Below, one piece after another: positions 2,363 to 52,138 of a DNA stretch of 64,000 nt. The position numbers and the translations under genes are program-made. Below the pieces are notes generated by a model, which was not told where the DNA came from, ran no database searches, and saw only the letters and a program-made list of their open reading frames with translations. The stretch's first letter is position 1. Every line of letters begins with the position of its first letter. Source of the stretch: Escherichia coli (GTDB lineage Bacteria > Pseudomonadota > Gammaproteobacteria > Enterobacterales > Enterobacteriaceae); assembly GCF_003790525.1 (NCBI RefSeq), contig NZ_CP033635.1. One strand, 5' to 3'.

Positions 2363-5300
2363 TTAATCGGTGTTGCTTTTTTCCGCTTTTCCGGCCATTT
2401 GTGCCAGGAAGTCATAGCGTTTTTGCAAATCAGCTGCAGCATCTTTCCATAACTGTTCTGCCACTTCTGGCTGCTGCGAATTCAGACGACGGAAACGTTG
2501 CTCATGAAGTAACGTTTCTTCCAGTGCTTCTGACGGCGGGCGTGAATCCAGTGCCAGCGGCAGTTTGCCTTCATCGGCTCGACGTGGATCAAAGCGATAT
2601 AGCGGCCAGAAGCCGGTAGCAGTGAGTTGGCGCATCTGGTCGTGGCTGAGAGCCAGATCGTAACCATGCTCTTCACACGGGCTATAAGCAATGATCAGCG
2701 ATGGTCCCGGATACGCTTCCGCTTCCTGAATCGCTTTCACCGTCTGGTTCAGCTGCGCGCCGAGAGAAATCTGCGCCACATAAACATGACCGTACATCAT
2801 CATACTGACGCCAAGATCTTTACGCGCTTTACGTTTGCCGTGCTCGCCGAACTTAGTTACTGCACCCAGCGGTGTCGCTTTCGACGCCTGACCACCAGTG
2901 TTGGAATAGCATTGCGTATCCAGCACCAGAATGTTGACGTTTTCCGTCAGGCTCAATACATGATCCAGACCGCCAAAGCCAATATCGTAAGCCCAGCCAT
3001 CGCCACCAATCAGCCAGATTGATTTTTCCACCAGAGCATCTGCGTCACGCAGCAGTTCATGTGCTTCGGCAACATCGTTGAGTTGCTGGCGTAAAGCTGC
3101 AACCTGTTCACGACGAATCTCTGGCGTAGCGTCTGATTTCAACGCAGTCAGTAATTCCGCCGGGATTTTATCGGCAAATTGATCCAGCAGACGCAGCACG
3201 CGGACACGGTGTTGATCGACCGTAAGGCGGAAACCAAGGCCGAATTCGGCGTTATCTTCAAACAGCGAGTTCGCCCATGCCGGTCCACGACCGTTGGCAT
3301 CAGTGGTATATGGTGTGGAGGGCAGGTTACCACCATAAATTGAAGAACAACCCGTAGCGTTAGCGATCAACATCCGATCGCCATAGAGCTGAGTCAGCAA
3401 TTTAATATACGGCGTCTCGCCACAACCGGAGCAAGCACCGGAATATTCAAACAGCGGTGTAATCAGCTGTGATGTACGAATATCAATACGTTCCAGTTTG
3501 CTACGGTCGATTTCTGGCAGGTTGAGGAAGAAATCGTAATTGATTTTCTCTTCTTCGACATGTTCCAGCCGCGACATCATATTGATGGCTTTAATCTCTG
3601 GATTCTGACGGTCTTTCGCCGGGCAAACTTCGACGCACAGGTTACAACCGGTGCAATCTTCCGGAGCCACCTGCAAGACATATTTCTGCCCGCGCATATC
3701 ACGCGATTTCACATCCAGCGAATGCAGGCTGGCAGGGGCGTTTTCCATCGCTTCAGGCGGTACCACTTTTGCGCGAATAGCTGAGTGTGGGCAAGCAGCG
3801 ACGCAGTGGTTACATTGGGTACAGAGTTCCTCTTTCCAGATGGGGATCTCTTCGGCGATATTGCGTTTTTCCCAGCGCGTGGTGCCCATCGGCCAGGTGC
3901 CGTCTGGCGGCAGCGCCGAAACGGGGAGGGCATCACCAAGCCCGGCGAGCATCGCCGCGGTTACGGTTTTCACGAAATCAGGGGCGGCATCGGAAACCAC
4001 TGGCGGTCGATTGGCGCTGTGCGGATTTACTGGTTGCAGCGGAACTTCTTCTACGGATTCACGTGCCAGCGCCAGAGCCTGCCAGTTGCGCTCCACCAGA
4101 TCCTGACCTTTGCTACTGTAACTTTTGGCAATCGCACCCTGCAATTCTGCGAGGGCGCTATCGCCAGGCAGAATTTGCGTCAGATGGAAAAAAGCCATCT
4201 GCATGACGGTATTAATTCGGGCCGCCAGGCCACATTCGCGGGCGATTTTCGCCGCGTTAATCACATAGAAGCGCGCTTTTTTCTGGTTTAACACGGCCTG
4301 AACTTCCTGCGGCAAGCGCGACCACACTTCATCTGCGCTGTACGGCGTGTTGAGCAGGAAAATGCCGCCAGGTTTTAAACGCTCAACCATCTGATATTTG
4401 TCGATAAACTGCAACTGGTGGCAGCCAACAAAATCAGCCTGGGAAATCAGATAAGCGGAACGAATCGGCTGCTCGCTCACGCGAAGGTGAGAAACCGTCA
4501 GGCCGCCCGCCTTTTTGGAGTCGTAAACAAAATAGCCCTGTGCGTACCACGGCGTGGAATTACCGATAATCTTGATATTGTTTTTGGTCGCGGAAACGCT
4601 GCCATCACTACCAAGGCCATAAAACAAGGCTTCAAGTTTCGCCGAGTTTGGCAGGGTGTTTTCCGGCAACGGCAGTGACAGATTGGTCACATCATCGTAA
4701 ATACCAACCGTAAAGCGCGCTTTCGGTTTAGCCGCGTTGAGCTCGGCAAATACCGCCAGTACACAGTCCGGGCCAAATTCTTTGGATGAAAGACCATAGC
4801 GCCCACCAATGACACGGGGCAGGGTTTCGCGCTCGCCATTATTAAAGGCTTCTGCCAGTGCGGTCATCACATCCAGATAGAGCGGTTCTGCCTGGGCACC
4901 GGGTTCTTTGGTTCTGTCCAGTACCGCCACGCTGCGTACGGATCCCGGCAGAGCTTGTAGCAAGTGTTTGGCGGAGAAGGGACGGTACAGGCGAACTTTC
5001 AGCACGCCGACTTTTTCGCCACGGGTTAGCAATTCATCAACCACTTCTTCACAGGTGCCAATGGCTGAGCCCATCAGGATAATCACCCGTTCCGCTTGCG
5101 GATGCCCATAATACTCAAATGGCTGATACTGACGACCTGTCGCGGCAGCGAAATCATTCATCGCCTGTTCAACATGGTCATAGACCGCGTTGTACCAGGG
5201 GTTGGTGGCTTCGCGAGACTGGAAATAAGTGTCAGGATTGGCGGACGTACCGCGGATCACCGGATGTTCCGGGTTGAGCGCCCGGGCGCGATGAGCATCA

Positions 5301-5887
5301 ATTTCGGCCTGCGGCATGAGATCAAGAATAGTGTCATCGGCCAGCGGGACAATTTTATTGATTTCGTGGGACGTGCGGAAACCATCAAAGAAATGAATAA
5401 ATGGCACGCGGCTCTTCAGCGTTGCGATGTGCGAAATGAGAGCAAAGTCTTGCGCTTCCTGGACGTTAGCCGCACACAACATCGCGCAACCCGTCTGGCG
5501 CACCGCCATAACGTCGGAATGATCGCCAAAAATAGAGAGTGCATGTGTGGCAACGGTACGTGCCGCTACATGCAGGACAAACGGTGTGAGTTCGCCTGCC
5601 AGTTTGTACAGCGTCGGGATCATCAGCAGCAAACCCTGCGATGACGTAAACGATGTTGAAAGGGCACCCGTCTGCAAAGCGCCATGCACGGTAGCGATAG
5701 CACCCGCTTCCGACTGCATTTCAACCACGCGTGGTGTGTCTCCCCAAACGTTCTTCAAGCCGTTTCCGGCCCAGGCATCAGCCTGTTCTGCCATCGTGGA
5801 ACTGGGGGTAATAGGGTAGATGGCGATAACTTCACTGGTGCGAAACGCCACCGAAGCAACCGCGCCATTACCGTCAATAGTAATCAT
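2363..5887 (-). CDS. ydbK: pyruvate:flavodoxin/ferredoxin oxidoreductase (PFOR, NifJ-like)
   Basis: 1174-aa ORF; two ferredoxin-type 4Fe-4S motifs visible (CTQCNHCVAACP, CTGCNLCVEVCP); TPP-binding C-terminal region. Confidence 0.93.
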   Translation of the reverse strand: MITIDGNGAVASVAFRTSEVIAIYPITPSSTMAEQADAWAGNGLKNVWGDTPRVVEMQSEAGAIATVHGALQTGALSTSFTSSQGLLLMIPTLYKLAGELTPFVLHVAARTVATHALSIFGDHSDVMAVRQTGCAMLCAANVQEAQDFALISHIATLKSRVPFIHFFDGFRTSHEINKIVPLADDTILDLMPQAEIDAHRARALNPEHPVIRGTSANPDTYFQSREATNPWYNAVYDHVEQAMNDFAAATGRQYQPFEYYGHPQAERVIILMGSAIGTCEEVVDELLTRGEKVGVLKVRLYRPFSAKHLLQALPGSVRSVAVLDRTKEPGAQAEPLYLDVMTALAEAFNNGERETLPRVIGGRYGLSSKEFGPDCVLAVFAELNAAKPKARFTVGIYDDVTNLSLPLPENTLPNSAKLEALFYGLGSDGSVSATKNNIKIIGNSTPWYAQGYFVYDSKKAGGLTVSHLRVSEQPIRSAYLISQADFVGCHQLQFIDKYQMVERLKPGGIFLLNTPYSADEVWSRLPQEVQAVLNQKKARFYVINAAKIARECGLAARINTVMQMAFFHLTQILPGDSALAELQGAIAKSYSSKGQDLVERNWQALALARESVEEVPLQPVNPHSANRPPVVSDAAPDFVKTVTAAMLAGLGDALPVSALPPDGTWPMGTTRWEKRNIAEEIPIWKEELCTQCNHCVAACPHSAIRAKVVPPEAMENAPASLHSLDVKSRDMRGQKYVLQVAPEDCTGCNLCVEVCPAKDRQNPEIKAINMMSRLEHVEEEKINYDFFLNLPEIDRSKLERIDIRTSQLITPLFEYSGACSGCGETPYIKLLTQLYGDRMLIANATGCSSIYGGNLPSTPYTTDANGRGPAWANSLFEDNAEFGLGFRLTVDQHRVRVLRLLDQFADKIPAELLTALKSDATPEIRREQVAALRQQLNDVAEAHELLRDADALVEKSIWLIGGDGWAYDIGFGGLDHVLSLTENVNILVLDTQCYSNTGGQASKATPLGAVTKFGEHGKRKARKDLGVSMMMYGHVYVAQISLGAQLNQTVKAIQEAEAYPGPSLIIAYSPCEEHGYDLALSHDQMRQLTATGFWPLYRFDPRRADEGKLPLALDSRPPSEALEETLLHEQRFRRLNSQQPEVAEQLWKDAAADLQKRYDFLAQMAGKAEKSNTD

Positions 5888-6160
5888 ATGACACCCTTAC
5901 ATTGCGCAAATGAGGGGCGCACGAAATTGCTGCGCGCCCAGTAGTTATCTTTCAATTTTAGCAAATGGCTTTCTTCTGCATTTTCGCTTTTGTGTCCCCC
6001 ACATCAGCGTAATGAATGTTTTGATCAAACAGAGGGCAAAAAAATAGCCATAAAAAAGTAAAAATGCGGGGCAACGCGCAGGACAGCTCTCGACGCCGCC
6101 CTCTGTGCTGCCTATTATTTATGGCGGTGTCGTTTGGCTTGAAGATCAGAGGAAGAAAAG

Positions 6161-7946: not shown

Positions 7947-8153
7947 AAGACTTTCTCCAGTGATGTTGAATCACATTTAAGCTACTAAAAATATTTTACA
8001 AAATTTCAAATATAATTGAAAGCTATGGCGATATTGAAAAATTCATCAACAACTATGCTTAGTGTAGGCGCAACCTTCAACTGAACGGTTAAACATGCCA
8101 CAATACCCGTATTGAATGCTTAATTTTTCGCTAAATCAGGATATTAACTACCC

Positions 8154-42643: not shown

Positions 42644-43183
42644 ATGACCGAAACGATAAAAGTAAGTGAATCACTTGAATTACATGCTGTTGCAGAAAGT
42701 CATGTCACACCTCTTTATCAGTTAATCTGTAAAAATAGAACCTGGCTACAGCAGTCGCTAAACTGGCCGCAGTTTGTTCAAAGTGAAGAGGACACGCGAA
42801 AAACGGTGCAGGGCAATGTAATGTTGCATCAACGCGGATATGCCAAAATGTTCATGATTTTCAAAGAAGATGAACTTATCGGCGTTATCTCGTTTAATCG
42901 TATTGAACCACTGAATAAAACCGCTGAAATCGGCTACTGGCTGGACGAATCTCATCAGGGGCAGGGGATCATTTCTCAGGCGCTGCAGGCATTGATTCAT
43001 CATTACGCTCAGTCTGGTGAACTTAGACGCTTCGTGATCAAATGTCGGGTGGACAATCCGCAAAGCAACCAGGTCGCTTTGCGCAATGGTTTTATCCTTG
43101 AAGGTTGCCTGAAACAGGCTGAGTTTCTGAATGATGCCTATGATGATGTGAACTTATACGCGCGTATTATCGATTCACAATAA
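42644..43183 (+). CDS. rimL: ribosomal-protein-L7/L12 serine N-acetyltransferase (GNAT)
   Basis: ORF track 42629..43183; start at [16 protein letters not shown] gives 179 aa. Confidence 0.88.
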
Positions 43184-44155
43184 CCCTGCCAGCGGCGTTC
43201 GCGTAATGCGCTCCTCGCCGTTAATGACTTTTGGACCACGGACATGAACCGTGTCGCCATCAAAGGCTTCAACGACGGCGTGGTCGGTTAACTCCACATG
43301 GTTTTCAATTATCACCGCACCTGTAATACGGCTCTCACCTTGTATGACAACGTGCTCGTCGAGCAGAATCGGTCCGCCACGTACCACGGCATTTCCGCCA
43401 ATCAAGACATGATGTTTTAACACACAATTACCTTCCACAATGGCATATTCCGCCACCTGCGAACTGTAATGAATCGTCGGAATGGCATCTTCTTCTATGC
43501 CAGCTTTCACCTGCGCGTGACCGTAGACTTTAGCACAATCGCATAGCCAGACGTTGTTCTCTTCATTACCCTCAATACTGGCAAAATCAAAAACTTCGGC
43601 GCGATGTTCAATAAAAGCATACCGGACGACGGCATCGCCATAAATTTGTGCCTGGTGGACAATCCGCGAGGCGCTAACCCTCGCGCGATCATAAATTTGT
43701 AGCAGGAGTTGATGGTCGGGCGTTAAGCCTTGTGCGGCGACGATCATAGAATGTTGATCAATTAAGGCGTGACCAAATATTCTACATTGACCGCAAACTA
43801 ATGAGTCACTAATGGTGACACTGTCACTTATATATGCACCCTGGCTGATTTCACTATTATCGATCCAGACATTATCCGTTGCGTAAACCTCTCCCCACAG
43901 CACGCTGGTGCCGGTGATACGCGTATTCCCGGAAATCACCGTTCCGCCGAACGCAATAGCATTCTGGTCGTAAATCCAGCAATTTCCTTCCTGTGCTAAC
44001 ACCGTTTCGCGATCGATCCAGCCGCCAGCGGTTCCTGCTATCACATCGTTAAAATCGCTAATGGCGATAATCTGCCGTAATAACACATTTTTTTTAGTGC
44101 CATCTTCCTGATAACTAAAGGCTCGCTGTTCTTCACTTAGACGATATTTGCGCAT
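43175..44155 (-). CDS. ydcK: hexapeptide-repeat (left-handed beta-helix) protein
   Basis: 326-aa ORF with repetitive hexapeptide-like pattern; 3' end overlaps the rimL 3' end by 9 nt. Confidence 0.85.
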
Positions 44156-44278
44156 AGCGTTTTCCCACAGGTGACTTACTATAACCGTAGCAAATTCTGC
44201 GGCTCTGGCTATGCTCGAGAAAATTCCATAAAATGCATTTCAAATATACTTTATAAATTAAACAAAATGAGTAAGAAG

Positions 44279-45271
44279 ATGCAGAGCGATAAAGTGCTCA
44301 ATTTGCCGGCAGGCTACTTTGGTATTGTGTTGGGGACGATAGGGATGGGATTTGCCTGGCGCTATGCCAGCCAGGTTTGGCAGGTCAGCCACTGGTTGGG
44401 GGATGGGCTGGTGATTCTGGCGATGATCATCTGGGGATTATTGACTGGCGCATTTATTACCCGACTCATACGCTTTCCGCATAGCGTGCTGGCAGAAGTG
44501 CGCCATCCAGTGCTGAGCAGTTTTGTGAGTTTGTTTCCGGCAACGACGATGCTGGTGGCGATTGGTTTTGTTCCGTGGTTTCGCCCACTGGCGGTGTGCC
44601 TGTTCAGTTTTGGTGTCGTGGTTCAGTTGGCTTATGCCGCCTGGCAAACTGCGGGATTATGGCGCGGATCTCACCCTGAAGAAGCTACCACGCCTGGACT
44701 GTATCTGCCGACAGTTGCCAACAACTTTATCAGCGCAATGGCCTGTGGTGCGTTGGGCTACACCGACGCCGGTCTGGTGTTTTTAGGCGCAGGCGTTTTC
44801 TCATGGCTAAGCCTGGAACCGGTGATCTTGCAGCGTCTGCGCAGTTCGGGAGAATTACCCACGGCACTGAGGACATCACTCGGCATTCAGCTCGCTCCTG
44901 CGCTGGTGGCCTGTAGTGCCTGGCTGAGCGTCAACGGCGGCGAGGGTGACACGCTGGCGAAAATGCTTTTCGGTTATGGACTGCTGCAACTGCTGTTTAT
45001 GCTACGTCTGATGCCATGGTATCTCTCCCAGCCATTTAATGCTTCATTCTGGAGTTTCTCGTTCGGCGTATCTGCACTGGCAACCACCGGTTTGCATCTG
45101 GGGAGTGGCAGCGATAATGGATTTTTCCATACGCTGGCGGTGCCGCTGTTTATCTTTACCAATTTTATTATTGCAATACTGCTCATCCGTACTTTTGCGC
45201 TTCTGATGCAGGGAAAATTGTTAGTCAGAACCGAGCGCGCCGTTTTAATGAAAGCAGAGGACAAAGAATGA
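44279..45271 (+). CDS. tehA: tellurite-resistance / dicarboxylate-transporter (TDT) family membrane protein
   Basis: ORF track 44171..45271; start at [20 protein letters not shown] gives 330 aa. Confidence 0.88.
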
Positions 45272-45861
45272 TCATTCGTGACGAAAACTATTTTACTGAT
45301 AAATATGAATTAACCCGCACACACTCTGAAGTGCTGGAAGCGGTGAAAGTGGTTAAACCGGGTAAAACGCTGGATCTGGGCTGTGGCAATGGTCGTAACA
45401 GTCTTTACCTGGCAGCCAATGGTTATGATGTTGACGCATGGGATAAAAATGCCATGAGTATCGCCAACGTCGAGCGCATTAAGTCCATTGAAAATCTGGA
45501 TAATTTACACACCCGGGTCGTTGATCTGAATAACCTCACATTTGATGGACAGTACGATTTTATTCTTTCGACTGTGGTGCTGATGTTCCTTGAGGCTAAA
45601 ACCATCCCAGGGCTGATTGCCAATATGCAACGTTGCACTAAACCTGGCGGTTACAACCTGATTGTGGCGGCGATGGATACCGCTGATTATCCATGTACCG
45701 TCGGCTTCCCGTTTGCCTTCAAAGAGGGAGAATTACGTCGATATTACGAAGGCTGGGAGAGGGTGAAATACAATGAGGACGTCGGCGAGCTGCACCGCAC
45801 CGACGCCAACGGTAATCGTATTAAACTGCGTTTCGCCACGATGCTGGCACGTAAAAAATGA
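45268..45861 (+). CDS. tehB: tellurite methyltransferase (SAM-dependent)
   Basis: 197-aa ORF; SAM-binding motif [14 protein letters not shown]; ATGA overlap with tehA. Confidence 0.92.
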
Positions 45862-46163
45862 TCCGGTAAGAACAAAGCGCGTGAAAATTCCCCACGCTGA
45901 GATGGTTTACTGTTCTTCTTTTCGGTAAGCATATTTTTAATCAAAAGGATGTGAAATTAATCACAGTAGTCGAAGTTTTTCATCAGATTAACGCACTGAT
46001 ATTTAACTACTGATGATTGACTTAGCCCCTTTTTCGGCATTGACTATGTCGTCTGTAAAGGGGCTGAAAAATTTATTTTCACCAACACTTTTTTTGCCAC
46101 AACACGAAGCGGCGCTTTTTGCTATAACTTAAAAAGTAATATAATCATCTCAGGAAACTATTC

Positions 46164-46832
46164 ATGCGTACCACATCATTTGCGAAAGTTGCAGCTTTAT
46201 GCGGCTTGTTGGCTCTGTCTGGTTGTGCCTCTAAAATCACCCAGCCAGATAAATATTCTGGTTTTTTAAACAATTACTCTGATTTAAAAGAAACAACCTC
46301 AGCAACAGGTAAACCTGTTTTACGTTGGGTAGACCCGAGTTTTGATCAAAGCAAATATGACAGCATCGTCTGGAACCCAATCACTTATTATCCGGTACCA
46401 AAACCTTCTACCCAGGTAGGGCAGAAAGTTCTGGATAAAATTTTGAACTATACCAACACCGAAATGAAAGAAGCGATAGCGCAGCGTAAACCACTGGTTA
46501 CCACCGCTGGGCCGCGTAGTCTGATTTTCCGTGGGGCCATTACCGGTGTAGATACCAGCAAAGAAGGGCTGCAATTCTATGAAGTGGTTCCTGTTGCATT
46601 AGTGGTTGCGGGGACGCAAATGGCTACAGGCCACCGTACCATGGATACTCGCTTGTATTTTGAAGGTGAGCTGATTGATGCAGCGACTAATAAACCGGTT
46701 ATCAAAGTCGTTCGTCAGGGCGAAGGTAAAGACCTGAATAACGAAAGTACGCCAATGGCTTTCGAAAATATTAAACAAGTTATTGATGACATGGCGACCG
46801 ATGCCACCATGTTTGACGTTAACAAAAAGTAG
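46164..46832 (+). CDS. ydcL: lipoprotein YdcL
   Basis: 222-aa ORF with lipobox (LALSGCAS). Confidence 0.85.
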   Translation: MRTTSFAKVAALCGLLALSGCASKITQPDKYSGFLNNYSDLKETTSATGKPVLRWVDPSFDQSKYDSIVWNPITYYPVPKPSTQVGQKVLDKILNYTNTEMKEAIAQRKPLVTTAGPRSLIFRGAITGVDTSKEGLQFYEVVPVALVVAGTQMATGHRTMDTRLYFEGELIDAATNKPVIKVVRQGEGKDLNNESTPMAFENIKQVIDDMATDATMFDVNKK

Positions 46833-46837
46833 TTCCA

Positions 46838-46868
46838 GACGCGCCATCGTTAGATGGCGCTTTTTATT
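46838..46868 (+). terminator. intrinsic terminator of ydcL
   Basis: gcgccatc gtta gatggcgc hairpin followed by TTTTT; the T-run overlaps the ydcO stop codon on the other strand. Confidence 0.8.
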
Positions 46869-47156
46869 ATCGGTTTCTGTCAGCGATTAAATTCAACACC
46901 ACGTAACAAACGCCTCCGGCAATTAATCCCCAAAACGCAGAACCAATCCCGACCAGCGTCAATCCACTTGCCGTTACCAGAAATGCCACCACCGCCGCGT
47001 CGCGCTCACGCTCATTATGCAGCGCCTGATACAAACTGCCGCCAATGGTACTCAACAGCGCCAGACCTGCCAGCATCTGGATCCAACTTACGGGCAGGGT
47101 AGTCATCATCCCGGTAATGGCACTACCAAACAGACCTGCGAGCAAATAGAAAATGC

Positions 47157-47168
47157 CTGCAACGGCAG
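47157..47168. repeat. left copy of 12-bp target-site duplication CTGCAACGGCAG
   Basis: Identical 12-mer directly abuts both IS4 ends. Confidence 0.85.
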
Positions 47169-48593
47169 TAATGCCGATCAGTTAAGGATCAGTTGACCGA
47201 TCCAGTGGCTGTGTAAGAATCCGGAAACGCTCACTTGTTTCCGGATTTTTTATGCACATTGGACAGGCTCTTGATCTGGTATCCCGTTACGATTCTCTGC
47301 GTAACCCACTGACTTCTCTGGGGGATTACCTCGACCCCGAACTCATCTCTCGTTGCCTTGCCGAATCAGGTACTGTAACGCTACGCAAGCGCCGTCTTCC
47401 CCTCGAAATGATGGTCTGGTGTATTGTTGGCATGGCGCTTGAGCGTAAAGAACCTCTTCACCAGATTGTGAATCGCCTGGACATCATGCTGCCGGGCAAT
47501 CGCCCCTTCGTTGCCCCCAGTGCCGTTATTCAGGCCCGCCAGCGCCTGGGAAGTGAGGCTGTCCGCCGCGTGTTCACGAAAACAGCGCAGCTCTGGCATA
47601 ACGCCACGCCGCATCCGCACTGGTGCGGCCTGACCCTGCTGGCCATCGATGGTGTGTTCTGGCGCACACCGGATACACCAGAGAACGATGCAGCCTTCCC
47701 CCGCCAGACACATGCCGGGAACCCGGCGCTCTACCCGCAGGTCAAAATGGTCTGCCAGATGGAACTGACCAGCCATCTGCTGACGGCTGCAGCCTTCGGC
47801 ACGATGAAGAACAGCGAAAATGAGCTTGCTGAGCAACTTATAGAACAAACCGGCGATAACACTCTGACGTTAATGGATAAAGGTTATTACTCACTGGGAC
47901 TGTTAAATGCCTGGAGCCTGGCGGGAGAACACCGCCACTGGATGATACCTCTCAGAAAGGGAGCGCAATATGAAGAGATCAGAAAACTGGGTAAAGGCGA
48001 TCATCTGGTGAAGCTGAAAACCAGCCCGCAGGCACGAAAAAAGTGGCCGGGACTGGGAAATGAAGTGACAGCCCGCCTGCTGACCGTGACGCGCAAAGGA
48101 AAAGTCTGCCATCTGCTGACGTCGATGACGGACGCCATGCGCTTCCCCGGAGGAGAAATGGCGGATCTGTACAGTCATCGCTGGGAAATCGAACTGGGAT
48201 ACAGGGAGATAAAACAGACGATGCAACTGAGCAGGCTGACGCTGAGAAGTAAAAAACCGGAGCTTGTGGAGCAAGAGCTGTGGGGTGTCTTACTGGCTTA
48301 TAATCTGGTGAGATATCAGATGATTAAAATGGCAGAACATCTGAAAGGTTACTGGCCGAATCAACTGAGTTTCTCAGAATCATGTGGAATGGTGATGAGA
48401 ATGCTGATGACATTGCAGGGCGCTTCACCGGGACGTATACCGGAGCTGATGCGCGATCTTGCAAGTATGGGACAACTTGTGAAATTACCGACAAGAAGGG
48501 AAAGGGCCTTCCCGAGAGTGGTAAAGGAGAGGCCCTGGAAATACCCCACAGCCCCGAAAAAGAGCCAGTCAGTTGCTTAACTGACTGGCATTA
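47169..48593 (+). mobile_element. insertion sequence IS4 (about 1425 bp)
   Basis: Imperfect 18-bp terminal inverted repeats (TAATGCCGATCAGTTAAG left; TAATGCCAGTCAGTTAAG at right, reverse-complemented), a single 442-aa transposase ORF, and flanking 12-bp direct repeats. Confidence 0.92.
47252..48580 (+). CDS. insG: IS4 transposase (DDE family)
   Basis: 442-aa ORF starting [35 protein letters not shown]; contains the IS4-family YREIK motif ([14 protein letters not shown]). Confidence 0.92.
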
Positions 48594-48605
48594 CTGCAAC
48601 GGCAG
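48594..48605. repeat. right copy of 12-bp target-site duplication CTGCAACGGCAG
   Basis: Identical to 47157..47168. Confidence 0.85.
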
Positions 48606-49567
48606 CGGCCAGCCAACGTTGATCTTTATCCGGATGCGCTTCCGGGCTTTGGCAAATAGCCGCGGTGATTGCCGCAATACCGACGGAATAAACGCCGAAA
48701 GGGGAAAAAACCAGTGCCAGCAATCCAGTAAATACAATTAATGGCGAAACAGGAGCCGAATATCCGGCTGCTTTCATTGCTGCGATACCCGGTGCGTTTT
48801 GCGATGCCATCGTCACCAGAAAAAGGGGGAGTGCAACGCTCAGGCTGTGAGCAAACGAAAAATCAGGGCTAATATAAGTGGGGAGAACGGGTTTAAAGAC
48901 AACATCAGTTGTGACAATGTCACCTTGCGCGATAACGATCACGACCCCAATAATCATCGCGGCAATTACCGCATAGCGCGGCGCAACGGCCCTGGTTGCC
49001 AGCCATACCAGCAACATACTGCCACACAACGTAAATTGACCATCCAGGCTCGCAAACGCCTGTAAACCAAAGCGTAATAAAATCCCGGCAAGCATTGCCG
49101 CCGCAAGCGAGTGCGGAATAATGCGCATCAGATGAGCAAAGAGTCCCGTTATGCCGCAGAGGACTATTAACGCGTTGGTGACAATAAAAACGCCGATGGT
49201 TTCGTTAAGTGTTAGTCCCTGCAATCCGGTGACCAACAAAGCCGCGCCAGGCGTTGACCATGCGGTGAGAACAGGTACGCGATACCATAATGTCAGAGCC
49301 AGCGTACTGACGCCCATTGCCAGCCCCAGCGCCGTCATCCAGCCAGAGATTTGTGCAGTGGTGGCTCCGGCGACAATCGCTGCTTGCCAGATTATTGCCG
49401 CTGAACTGGCGTAGCCAATTAATACCGCCAGAAACCCCGCCAGTAGCGTGGGTGGAGGAATAGAAAACAGACGCATAGTCACCTCGTGCGTTATAGCGTA
49501 CAGGCACCGTAGCATTTGTCCGTTATAACGCACAAGTGATAAACTTCCGTTTTGCCGGAGGAGTCGC

Positions 49568-50104
49568 ATGGAAAATCTCGCTCGCTTTTTATCCACCACA
49601 CTTAAACAACTACGCCAGCAGCGCGGCTGGAGTCTTTCGCGACTGGCCGAAGCGACGGGCGTTTCTAAAGCAATGTTAGGGCAGATTGAGCGTAATGAAT
49701 CCAGCCCGACGGTCGCGACATTATGGAAAATTGCCACCGGGTTGAACGTACCATTTTCAACATTTATTTCTCCGCCGCAGTCCGCTACACCTTCAGTTTA
49801 TGATCCACAACAGCAGGCGATGGTGATCACTTCGCTGTTTCCTTATGATCCACAACTCTGCTTTGAACACTTCTCGATTCAGATGGCATCTGGTGCAATA
49901 AGCGAATCGACGCCCCATGAGAAGGGGGTAATCGAACATGTCGTCGTCATTGATGGACAACTTGATCTGTGCGTTGATGGTGAATGGCAGAGCCTTAATT
50001 GTGGGGAAGGCGTTCGATTTGCTGCAGACGTCACGCATATCTATCGTAATGGTGGGGAGCAAACCGTACATTTTCATTCCCTCATCCATTACCCGCGCAG
50101 TTAA
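49568..50104 (+). CDS. ydcN: XRE-family HTH plus cupin-domain transcriptional regulator
   Basis: 178-aa ORF; N-terminal HTH (RQQRGWSLSRLAEATGVSKAMLGQIERNESSPT); divergent from ydcO. Confidence 0.85.
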   Translation: MENLARFLSTTLKQLRQQRGWSLSRLAEATGVSKAMLGQIERNESSPTVATLWKIATGLNVPFSTFISPPQSATPSVYDPQQQAMVITSLFPYDPQLCFEHFSIQMASGAISESTPHEKGVIEHVVVIDGQLDLCVDGEWQSLNCGEGVRFAADVTHIYRNGGEQTVHFHSLIHYPRS

Positions 50105-50176
50105 GCGGGAAAACTATTTCGCAACGTCGCGCTTGTGGCTAAAATAGCAGCCATTTTTCAGCTACTGGATAAGAAT

Positions 50177-52138
50177 GTGACCGTATCTTCTCATCGACTT
50201 GAACTGTTAAGCCCGGCACGCGATGCCGCCATTGCCCGCGAAGCTATTTTGCACGGTGCCGATGCTGTTTATATCGGCGGACCTGGTTTTGGTGCCCGTC
50301 ATAATGCCAGTAATAGCCTGAAAGATATTGCCGAGTTGGTGCCGTTTGCCCATCGTTATGGTGCAAAAATTTTCGTCACGCTTAACACCATTTTGCATGA
50401 TGATGAGCTGGAACCCGCACAACGGCTGATTACCGACCTCTATCAGACCGGCGTCGATGCGCTGATTGTTCAGGATATGGGGATTCTGGAACTTGATATT
50501 CCGCCGATTGAACTGCACGCCAGTACGCAGTGCGACATTCGTACAGTAGAAAAAGCGAAGTTCCTCTCTGATGTTGGCTTCACGCAGATTGTGCTGGCGC
50601 GAGAGCTGAATCTTGAGCAGATCCGCGCGATTCACCAGGCCACGGACGCGACCATTGAATTCTTTATTCATGGCGCACTGTGCGTGGCCTATTCGGGTCA
50701 GTGCTACATTTCTCATGCGCAAACAGGGCGTAGCGCCAACCGTGGCGATTGCTCGCAGGCGTGCCGTTTGCCATACACATTGAAAGACGATCAGGGGCGG
50801 GTGGTTTCCTATGAAAAACATCTGCTGTCGATGAAAGATAACGATCAGACTGCCAACCTCGGCGCGCTGATTGATGCTGGCGTACGCTCCTTCAAGATTG
50901 AAGGGCGTTACAAAGATATGAGCTACGTGAAGAATATCACCGCCCATTATCGTCAGATGCTGGATGCCATTATTGAAGAACGTGGCGATCTAGCGCGCGC
51001 TTCATCAGGTCGTACTGAACATTTCTTTGTTCCATCGACGGAAAAGACTTTCCACCGTGGTAGCACAGATTATTTTGTGAATGCCCGTAAAGGCGATATT
51101 GGCGCGTTCGATTCGCCGAAATTTATCGGCCTGCCGGTGGGTGAAGTATTGAAAGTGGCGAAAGATCATCTCGATGTTGCCGTTTCCGAACCACTGGCAA
51201 ATGGCGATGGCCTGAACGTGATGATTAAACGTGAAGTCGTCGGTTTTCGTGCCAATACGGTAGAGAAAACCGGAGAAAATCAGTACCGCGTCTGGCCCAA
51301 TGAAATGCCAGCAGAGTTGCACAAAATTCGCCCGCATCACCCACTAAACCGTAATCTTGATCATGACTGGCAGCAGGCACTGACAAAAACCTCTAGCGAA
51401 CGTCGGGTGGCGGTAGACATTGAACTGGGCGGCTGGCAGGAACAACTGATTCTGACCCTCACCAGTGAAGAGGGTGTCAGCATCACGCATACGCTGGACG
51501 GGCAGTTCGACGAAGCCAATAACGCCGAAAAAGCAATGAACAATCTAAAGGATGGTCTGGCAAAACTGGGGCAAACCATCTATTACGCCCGCGATGTGCA
51601 AATTAATTTGCCGGGTGCGCTGTTTGTACCAAACAGTCTGCTAAACCAGTTCCGCCGTGAAGCCGCCGATATGCTTGATGCTGCGCGTCTTGCCAGTTAC
51701 CAGCGCGGCAGCCGTAAACCGGTTGCTGATCCTGCGCCGGTTTATCCGCAAACGCATCTGAGTTTCCTCGCGAACGTATACAACCAGAAAGCGCGTGAAT
51801 TTTATCATCGCTATGGTGTGCAACTGATTGACGCGGCGTATGAGGCACATGAAGAGAAGGGCGAAGTCCCGGTGATGATCACCAAGCATTGTCTGCGCTT
51901 TGCCTTCAATCTGTGCCCGAAACAGGCGAAAGGCAATATCAAAAGCTGGAAGGCAACGCCAATGCAACTGGTTAACGGTGATGAAGTGTTAACGCTGAAA
52001 TTTGATTGCCGCCCATGCGAGATGCACGTCATTGGCAAAATCAAAAATCACATACTGAAAATGCCGTTACCGGGAAGCGTAGTGGCATCCGTAAGTCCGG
52101 ATGATCTGCTGAAAACATTGCCGAAGCGAAAAGGGTAA
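50177..52138 (+). CDS. rlhA: U32-peptidase-family protein (RlhA, 23S rRNA C2501 hydroxylation factor)
   Basis: ORF track 50135..52138; GTG start chosen to give the 653 aa I recall for YdcP/RlhA. Confidence 0.8.
   Translation: MTVSSHRLELLSPARDAAIAREAILHGADAVYIGGPGFGARHNASNSLKDIAELVPFAHRYGAKIFVTLNTILHDDELEPAQRLITDLYQTGVDALIVQDMGILELDIPPIELHASTQCDIRTVEKAKFLSDVGFTQIVLARELNLEQIRAIHQATDATIEFFIHGALCVAYSGQCYISHAQTGRSANRGDCSQACRLPYTLKDDQGRVVSYEKHLLSMKDNDQTANLGALIDAGVRSFKIEGRYKDMSYVKNITAHYRQMLDAIIEERGDLARASSGRTEHFFVPSTEKTFHRGSTDYFVNARKGDIGAFDSPKFIGLPVGEVLKVAKDHLDVAVSEPLANGDGLNVMIKREVVGFRANTVEKTGENQYRVWPNEMPAELHKIRPHHPLNRNLDHDWQQALTKTSSERRVAVDIELGGWQEQLILTLTSEEGVSITHTLDGQFDEANNAEKAMNNLKDGLAKLGQTIYYARDVQINLPGALFVPNSLLNQFRREAADMLDAARLASYQRGSRKPVADPAPVYPQTHLSFLANVYNQKAREFYHRYGVQLIDAAYEAHEEKGEVPVMITKHCLRFAFNLCPKQAKGNIKSWKATPMQLVNGDEVLTLKFDCRPCEMHVIGKIKNHILKMPLPGSVVASVSPDDLLKTLPKRKG

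Follow-up and report, generated by a model that had tools for sequence, protein, structure and literature searches.

The junction between the convergent genes ydcL and ydcO in the stretch of Escherichia coli DNA analysed here (hereafter the window, 64,000 nucleotides) raises the question of why insQ, the tnpB gene of an IS609-type element that parts the two genes in K-12, is missing between them, and of whether an element was lost from the site or never reached it. The first-pass annotation had noted the direct adjacency of ydcL and ydcO, which is borne out by the sequence, by the list of open reading frames (ORFs) and by blastn and tblastn searches of the 64-kb window. The junction is organized as follows.

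46164..46832, + strand: ydcL (DUF3313 lipoprotein), complete; from the ORF list and from RefSeq, as annotated for SMS-3-5 (identical sequence).
46833..46866, no strand: convergent intergenic spacer of 34 bp between the ydcL and ydcO stop codons; from the sequence and the ORF ends.
46841..46865, + strand: hairpin with T-run resembling an intrinsic terminator; from a terminator scan and folding z-scores (-3.6 and -4.0).
46864..46867, + strand: TTAT target tetranucleotide, unoccupied and without footprint; from the BLAST break point, the junction strings and the split at query position 45|46 in ~3,300 genomes.
46867..46869, - strand: ydcO stop codon TAA; from the C-terminal translations, with the K-12 IS609 insertion point inside the triplet.
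46867..47168, - strand: 3' fragment of ydcO (BenE-family transporter), truncated by IS4; from the RefSeq pseudogene annotation and alignment to K-12 ydcO.
46868..46887, + strand: TATCGGTTTCTGTCAGCGAT, the same 20 nt as the right flank of IS609 in K-12; from the identical flanks.
48594..49515, - strand: 5' fragment of ydcO; from the RefSeq annotation converted to window coordinates and BLAST to K-12.

The sequence and the ORF list give ydcL as an ORF of 222 codons whose TAG stop codon occupies positions 46830-46832. Gene names are those of RefSeq for the SMS-3-5 record (NC_010498.1), in which ydcL, two ydcO pseudogene fragments and an IS4 transposase between the fragments are annotated, with sutR and rlhA as downstream genes. 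The 4.3-kb region 45900-50200 of the window is 100% identical to SMS-3-5 and to 13 other complete genomes, and at least 99.9% identical to 10 more. The two convergent stop codons are indeed close to each other, but the spacing of 35 bp first reported (46833-46867) has to be reduced to 34 bp (46833-46866) because one base of the ydcO stop codon, at 46867, had been counted in. Neither IS609 DNA nor an InsQ-like coding sequence was found in the 64-kb window by blastn and tblastn, and no IS609 ends or relic were found at the window junction. IS609 is thus missing from the ydcL-ydcO junction. The absence of insQ applies to this locus and does not extend to the genome. With the 4.3-kb region alone SMS-3-5 is matched at 5 places; with a chimeric query, extended by 1 kb of insQ and searched at megablast sensitivity, it is matched at 8, and three insQ-like places therefore exist elsewhere in its chromosome.

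The spacer contains one hairpin with a stem of 8 bp (GCGCCATC-GTTA-GATGGCGC, 46841-46860) that is directly followed by TTTTTATTAT, the T-run being positions 46861-46865. Folding of the hairpin RNA is good on either strand, with z = -3.6 for + and -4.0 for -, while a terminator-like score was obtained in the consensus scan on the + strand only, which is that of ydcL. On the ydcO (-) strand GUCUGGAACUAC comes after the stem, without a U-run, so that the G+C-rich hairpin with a U-run on both transcribed strands, which defines a bidirectional intrinsic terminator, is not found. The proposal that ydcL and ydcO share a terminator is only half supported by these sequence features: one hairpin folds on both strands, and its predicted function as terminator is confined to ydcL.

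The gene content given for K-12 in the first-pass annotation is correct. In NC_000913.3 (K-12 MG1655) IS609 is annotated at 1503161-1504908 (1,748 bp) between ydcL (b1431) and ydcO (b1433), which excludes direct adjacency of the two genes there. What separates them is not a lone insQ but a complete IS609 that holds yncK, a dead tnpA annotated as pseudogene, and an intact insQ (b1432). Pairwise alignment of the window with the K-12 locus by BLAST breaks at 46867|46868 and gives three aligned blocks. The first (window 43001-46867) extends up to the last K-12 base before IS609, the second (window 46868-47168) starts at the first K-12 base after IS609, and the third runs from window position 48594 onward with a 12-bp overlap. 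The window reads ...GATGGCGCTTTTTAT|TATCGGTTTCTG..., the left junction in K-12 ...GATGGCGCTTTTTAT|CCGGTGCGCC... and the right junction ...GGAGGATGTCAA|TATCGGTTTCTG.... No base is gained, lost or duplicated, the two flanks joining at TTAT|TATCGG. The flanks of the occupied allele are therefore exactly contiguous in the window, with neither target duplication nor footprint, and the insertion is at the same chromosomal site, whose exact TTAT target (46864-46867) and both flanks are present here. The insertion point overlaps both the terminator T-run and the ydcO stop codon. YdcO ends in ...DRNR* (TAA) in the window and in ...DRNRY* in K-12, where the TGA is provided by the right end of IS609. The window, without the element, keeps the native TAA, and its YdcO is one residue shorter than that of K-12. 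Note that the ydcO stop codon is split by IS609 in K-12 (5900-5912 of the extracted K-12 locus), which leads to the gain of the C-terminal Tyr, and that ydcO of K-12 lies 1.75 kb from the hairpin that adjoins ydcO in strains with an unoccupied site.

Elements of the IS200/IS605 family excise precisely and without scar, and single-strand elements mobilized by Y1 transposases typically cause no target duplication. Transposons of the IS608/ISDra2 type insert 3' of TTAC or TTGAT, with no target duplication and seamless excision, and IS608 ends in TCAA. IS609 is assigned to this family by its RefSeq annotation (an IS200/IS605 family transposase pseudogene and an InsQ/TnpB family protein). It has TTAT at the end of its left flank and TCAA at its own end, an arrangement characteristic of single-strand transposons of the IS200/IS605 family such as IS608. 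TTAT directly precedes the left end in K-12, 2016C-3878, 99_0288 and N51 and also the relic found in MOD1-EC7003 (see below), as a conserved tetranucleotide target would. Potential hairpin-forming sequences are visible by eye at the IS609 ends. The site therefore resembles those of the IS608/ISDra2 type in its tetranucleotide directly 5' of the insertion point, in the lack of duplication and in the TCAA end of the occupied allele. It differs from them in the TTAT target and in a tnpA that is a pseudogene.

To assess the frequency of the two states, a probe of 90 bp with the window junction at its centre was matched to complete E. coli genomes. Of the 5,416 genomes with the locus, 2,047 (about 38%) match it without a break and have the unoccupied junction, O157:H7 and ST131 strains being among them, and in most remaining genomes the probe match is split exactly at 46867|46868. 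Probes for the K-12 ydcL/IS609 and IS609/ydcO junctions are contiguous in 3,268 and 3,265 genomes, respectively, which places the occupied share at about 60%; in about 100 genomes the site content is neither. Presence or absence of IS609 between ydcL and ydcO is thus an ordinary polymorphism, already annotated and already known. Two less common configurations were seen. E. coli E28 carries a copy of IS200C (tnpA annotated; 560-1275 of the extracted locus) in the terminator T-run, at the equivalent of window positions 46863-46865, which puts it 2-3 bp away from where IS609 inserts. The hairpin with its T-run has therefore been used by two distinct elements of the IS200/IS605 family. In E. coli HH45 (340-390 of the extracted locus) TTAT is followed by 23 G and then by a right-end remnant of IS609 (AGCCAGGGCGTGGAGGATGTCAA), a junction suggestive of either an artefact (of assembly or sequencing) or an element in decay.

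The state of the site outside E. coli was examined in a collection of species-representative genomes, where a degenerate pattern of the YdcL C-terminus retrieved ten loci. In four divergent Escherichia lineages (E. whittamii, Escherichia sp. E1V33, 'E. coli' E69 and SCPM-O-B-8794) ydcL directly adjoins ydcO, with zero bases between flanks that are 87-91% identical to those of the window. The loci of E. albertii, Citrobacter, Enterobacter and Raoultella, where ydcL is not next to ydcO, are uninformative on the state of the site. Flank polymorphisms were compared among seven E. coli alleles. Position 46655 of the window is C in all four occupied alleles (K-12, 2016C-3878, 99_0288 and N51) and G in the window, in O157:H7, in ST131 and in the three outgroups aligned there, a link with IS609 that rests on 11 sequences and leaves out E. 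whittamii, whose locus begins too late in ydcL. Collection-wide, 61-mers over the SNPs at 46653 and 46655 are identical in 1,479 cases, to be set against 2,047 unoccupied sites as separate and not joint counts. The window lies on the ancestral haplotype because it shares its G with the outgroups while the occupied alleles have C. From the outgroup state and this haplotype we infer that the unoccupied junction is most likely ancestral rather than excised and that K-12 probably carries the derived state.

A relic of the element is present in Escherichia sp. MOD1-EC7003, whose ydcL is 95% identical and which is closer than the outgroups. It consists of 46 bp of IS609, made of left- and right-end sequence, placed 3' of the same TTAT (reverse complement of 8046-8106 of the extracted locus). 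It is followed by ~25 bp of ydcO 3' sequence and then by the sutR 3' end, most of ydcO and sutR being deleted. MOD1-EC7003 has G at 46655. Occupation of the site may accordingly be older than E. coli proper, or it may be recurrent.

The IS609 copies found at the site differ between strains at 17-31 of 1,748 bases. This is similar to the divergence of their flanks, and the element is therefore old and vertically inherited. Its tnpA is a pseudogene in 4/4 occupied alleles inspected (K-12, 2016C-3878, 99_0288 and N51), which argues against excision by the element's own transposase. The inactivating stop lies in ...GVSGR*L in K-12 and in ...LLIN*PP in the other three copies, 99_0288 having an additional frameshift (tnpA regions 4219-4650 of the extracted locus in K-12 and 1151-1657, 2228-2729 and 2228-2734 in the others). 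The different stops imply that tnpA was intact early in the history of the element. In the same four alleles insQ (1,209 nt) is intact, with pN/pS of 0.19-0.58 from small counts. The allele of 2016C-3878 is occupied by IS609, yet its ydcL flank differs from that of the window at only 2/1,168 bases, and recombination has therefore shuffled alleles at the site. Sequence comparison of the copies and flanks would thus point to one old IS609 insertion, passed on vertically and shuffled by recombination.

We consider it highly probable that the window shows the native, never-occupied ydcL-ydcO junction, that IS609 inserted in another E. coli lineage and that IS4 was acquired independently. The sequence of events would be the following. 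The 34-bp spacer with the ydcL intrinsic terminator would have offered TTAT|TA, formed by the T-run and the ydcO stop codon. IS609, as a member of the IS200/IS605 family, would have integrated 3' of this TTAT in the lineage of K-12 and of about 60% of complete genomes, presumably as single-stranded DNA through a Y1 HUH transposase and without target duplication. It would since have been inherited as a resident with a dead tnpA and an intact insQ (tnpB). The window strain, of SMS-3-5 type, would have kept the ancestral unoccupied allele and separately gained IS4 in ydcO.

The alternative that survives best, and that we still regard as unlikely, is former occupation of the site in the ancestry of this strain followed by loss of IS609 through precise TnpA-mediated excision, with scarless restoration of TTAT|TATCGG. 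A seamless junction is what excision of an IS200/IS605 element is expected to leave, the three insQ-like places elsewhere in SMS-3-5 might supply TnpA in trans, an occupied allele is found on a near-identical ydcL haplotype (2016C-3878), and the differing tnpA stops imply an early intact gene; this is countered by the four unoccupied outgroup lineages, by the ancestral G at 46655 in the window versus C in four occupied alleles, and by a tnpA that is dead in every copy examined at the site. Still less credit is given to the exchange of an occupied for an unoccupied allele by homologous recombination with DNA of another E. coli lineage. The mosaic of flank SNPs among strains (2016C-3878 compared to the window) shows that recombination occurs at the locus, but the lineage of the window bears no sign of past occupation and its flanks have no K-12-like block around the junction. 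An assembly artefact, in which a collapsed or skipped repeat would hide IS609, has nothing specific in its favour beyond the odd poly-G junction of another genome, HH45, and was rejected as next to impossible, since the same contiguous junction recurs across thousands of genomes (2,047 independently assembled complete ones) and the 4.3-kb region is shared at 100% identity by SMS-3-5 and 13 other genomes and at 99.9% or more by a further 10.

Assignment of the window to the native junction matters little beyond correct strain bookkeeping: this is the unoccupied, probably ancestral allele of a common polymorphism. K-12, the usual reference, would carry the derived state, in which the ydcO stop codon is changed and ydcO is parted from the ydcL terminator hairpin. 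The ydcL-ydcO site is a possible lineage marker and a clean natural target for testing InsQ as an RNA-guided nuclease. The guide RNA of a TnpB is expected at the 3' end of insQ and the right end of the element. By analogy with published TnpB work, the right end of IS609 in K-12 would presumably yield a guide RNA that uses the flanking TATCGGTTTCTGTCAGCGAT as its guide. If InsQ is active, TTAT followed by TATCGGTTTCTGTCAGCGAT in the window (46864-46887) would then constitute a TAM plus a perfect target for the K-12 InsQ guide RNA. A search of the IS609 right end in K-12 for an Rfam guide-RNA family gave sub-threshold matches only (HgcC, 22 bits versus a gathering score of 50, E = 0.019; RAGATH-18, 25 versus 45). 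The weak HgcC match (5803-5919 of the extracted K-12 locus) runs from the insQ 3' end across the right end of IS609 to 10 nt into the flank. The literature found for IS609, insQ and TnpB consists of mobile-element surveys and one paper in which IS609 TnpB is among the purified proteins, with nothing on this locus.

It is conceivable, as a speculation to which we attach little weight, that the ~60/38 polymorphism has been shaped by InsQ-guided cutting of unoccupied alleles where DNA of the two chromosomal states comes together after horizontal transfer, as a natural homing drive within E. coli in which mild purifying selection preserves InsQ and tnpA is left to decay, and that the terminator T-run is a recurrent hotspot for IS200/IS605 elements. 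With respect to such a hotspot, note that IS609, the IS200C copy and the relic of the sister lineage all lie within 3 bp of one another.

The presence of IS4 inside ydcO, reported in the first-pass annotation as the other difference in IS content from K-12, is confirmed by the RefSeq annotation and by a 12-bp target duplication. The insertion is composed of the following features.

47157..47168, no strand: left copy of the IS4 target-site duplication, CTGCAACGGCAG; from the sequence, single copy in K-12.
47169..48593, + strand: IS4, 1,425 bp long between these limits and bounded by the terminal inverted repeats TAATGCC.../...GGCATTA; from the ORF list, annotation and sequence.
47252-48580, + strand: IS4 transposase CDS, 442 aa; from the ORF list and the annotation 'IS4-like element IS4 family transposase'.
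48594..48605, no strand: right copy of the target-site duplication, CTGCAACGGCAG; from the sequence.

IS4 encodes a DDE transposase and generates duplications of 11-13 bp. The copy in the window conforms to this in its transposase of 442 aa, in its terminal inverted repeats and in its 12-bp CTGCAACGGCAG, and has nothing unusual. The insertion in ydcO (47157-48605) is lineage-specific, being found in only 24/5,426 complete E. coli genomes, SMS-3-5 included, and is usable as a lineage marker. Its carriers include isolates from humans, chickens, dogs, water and a pangolin.
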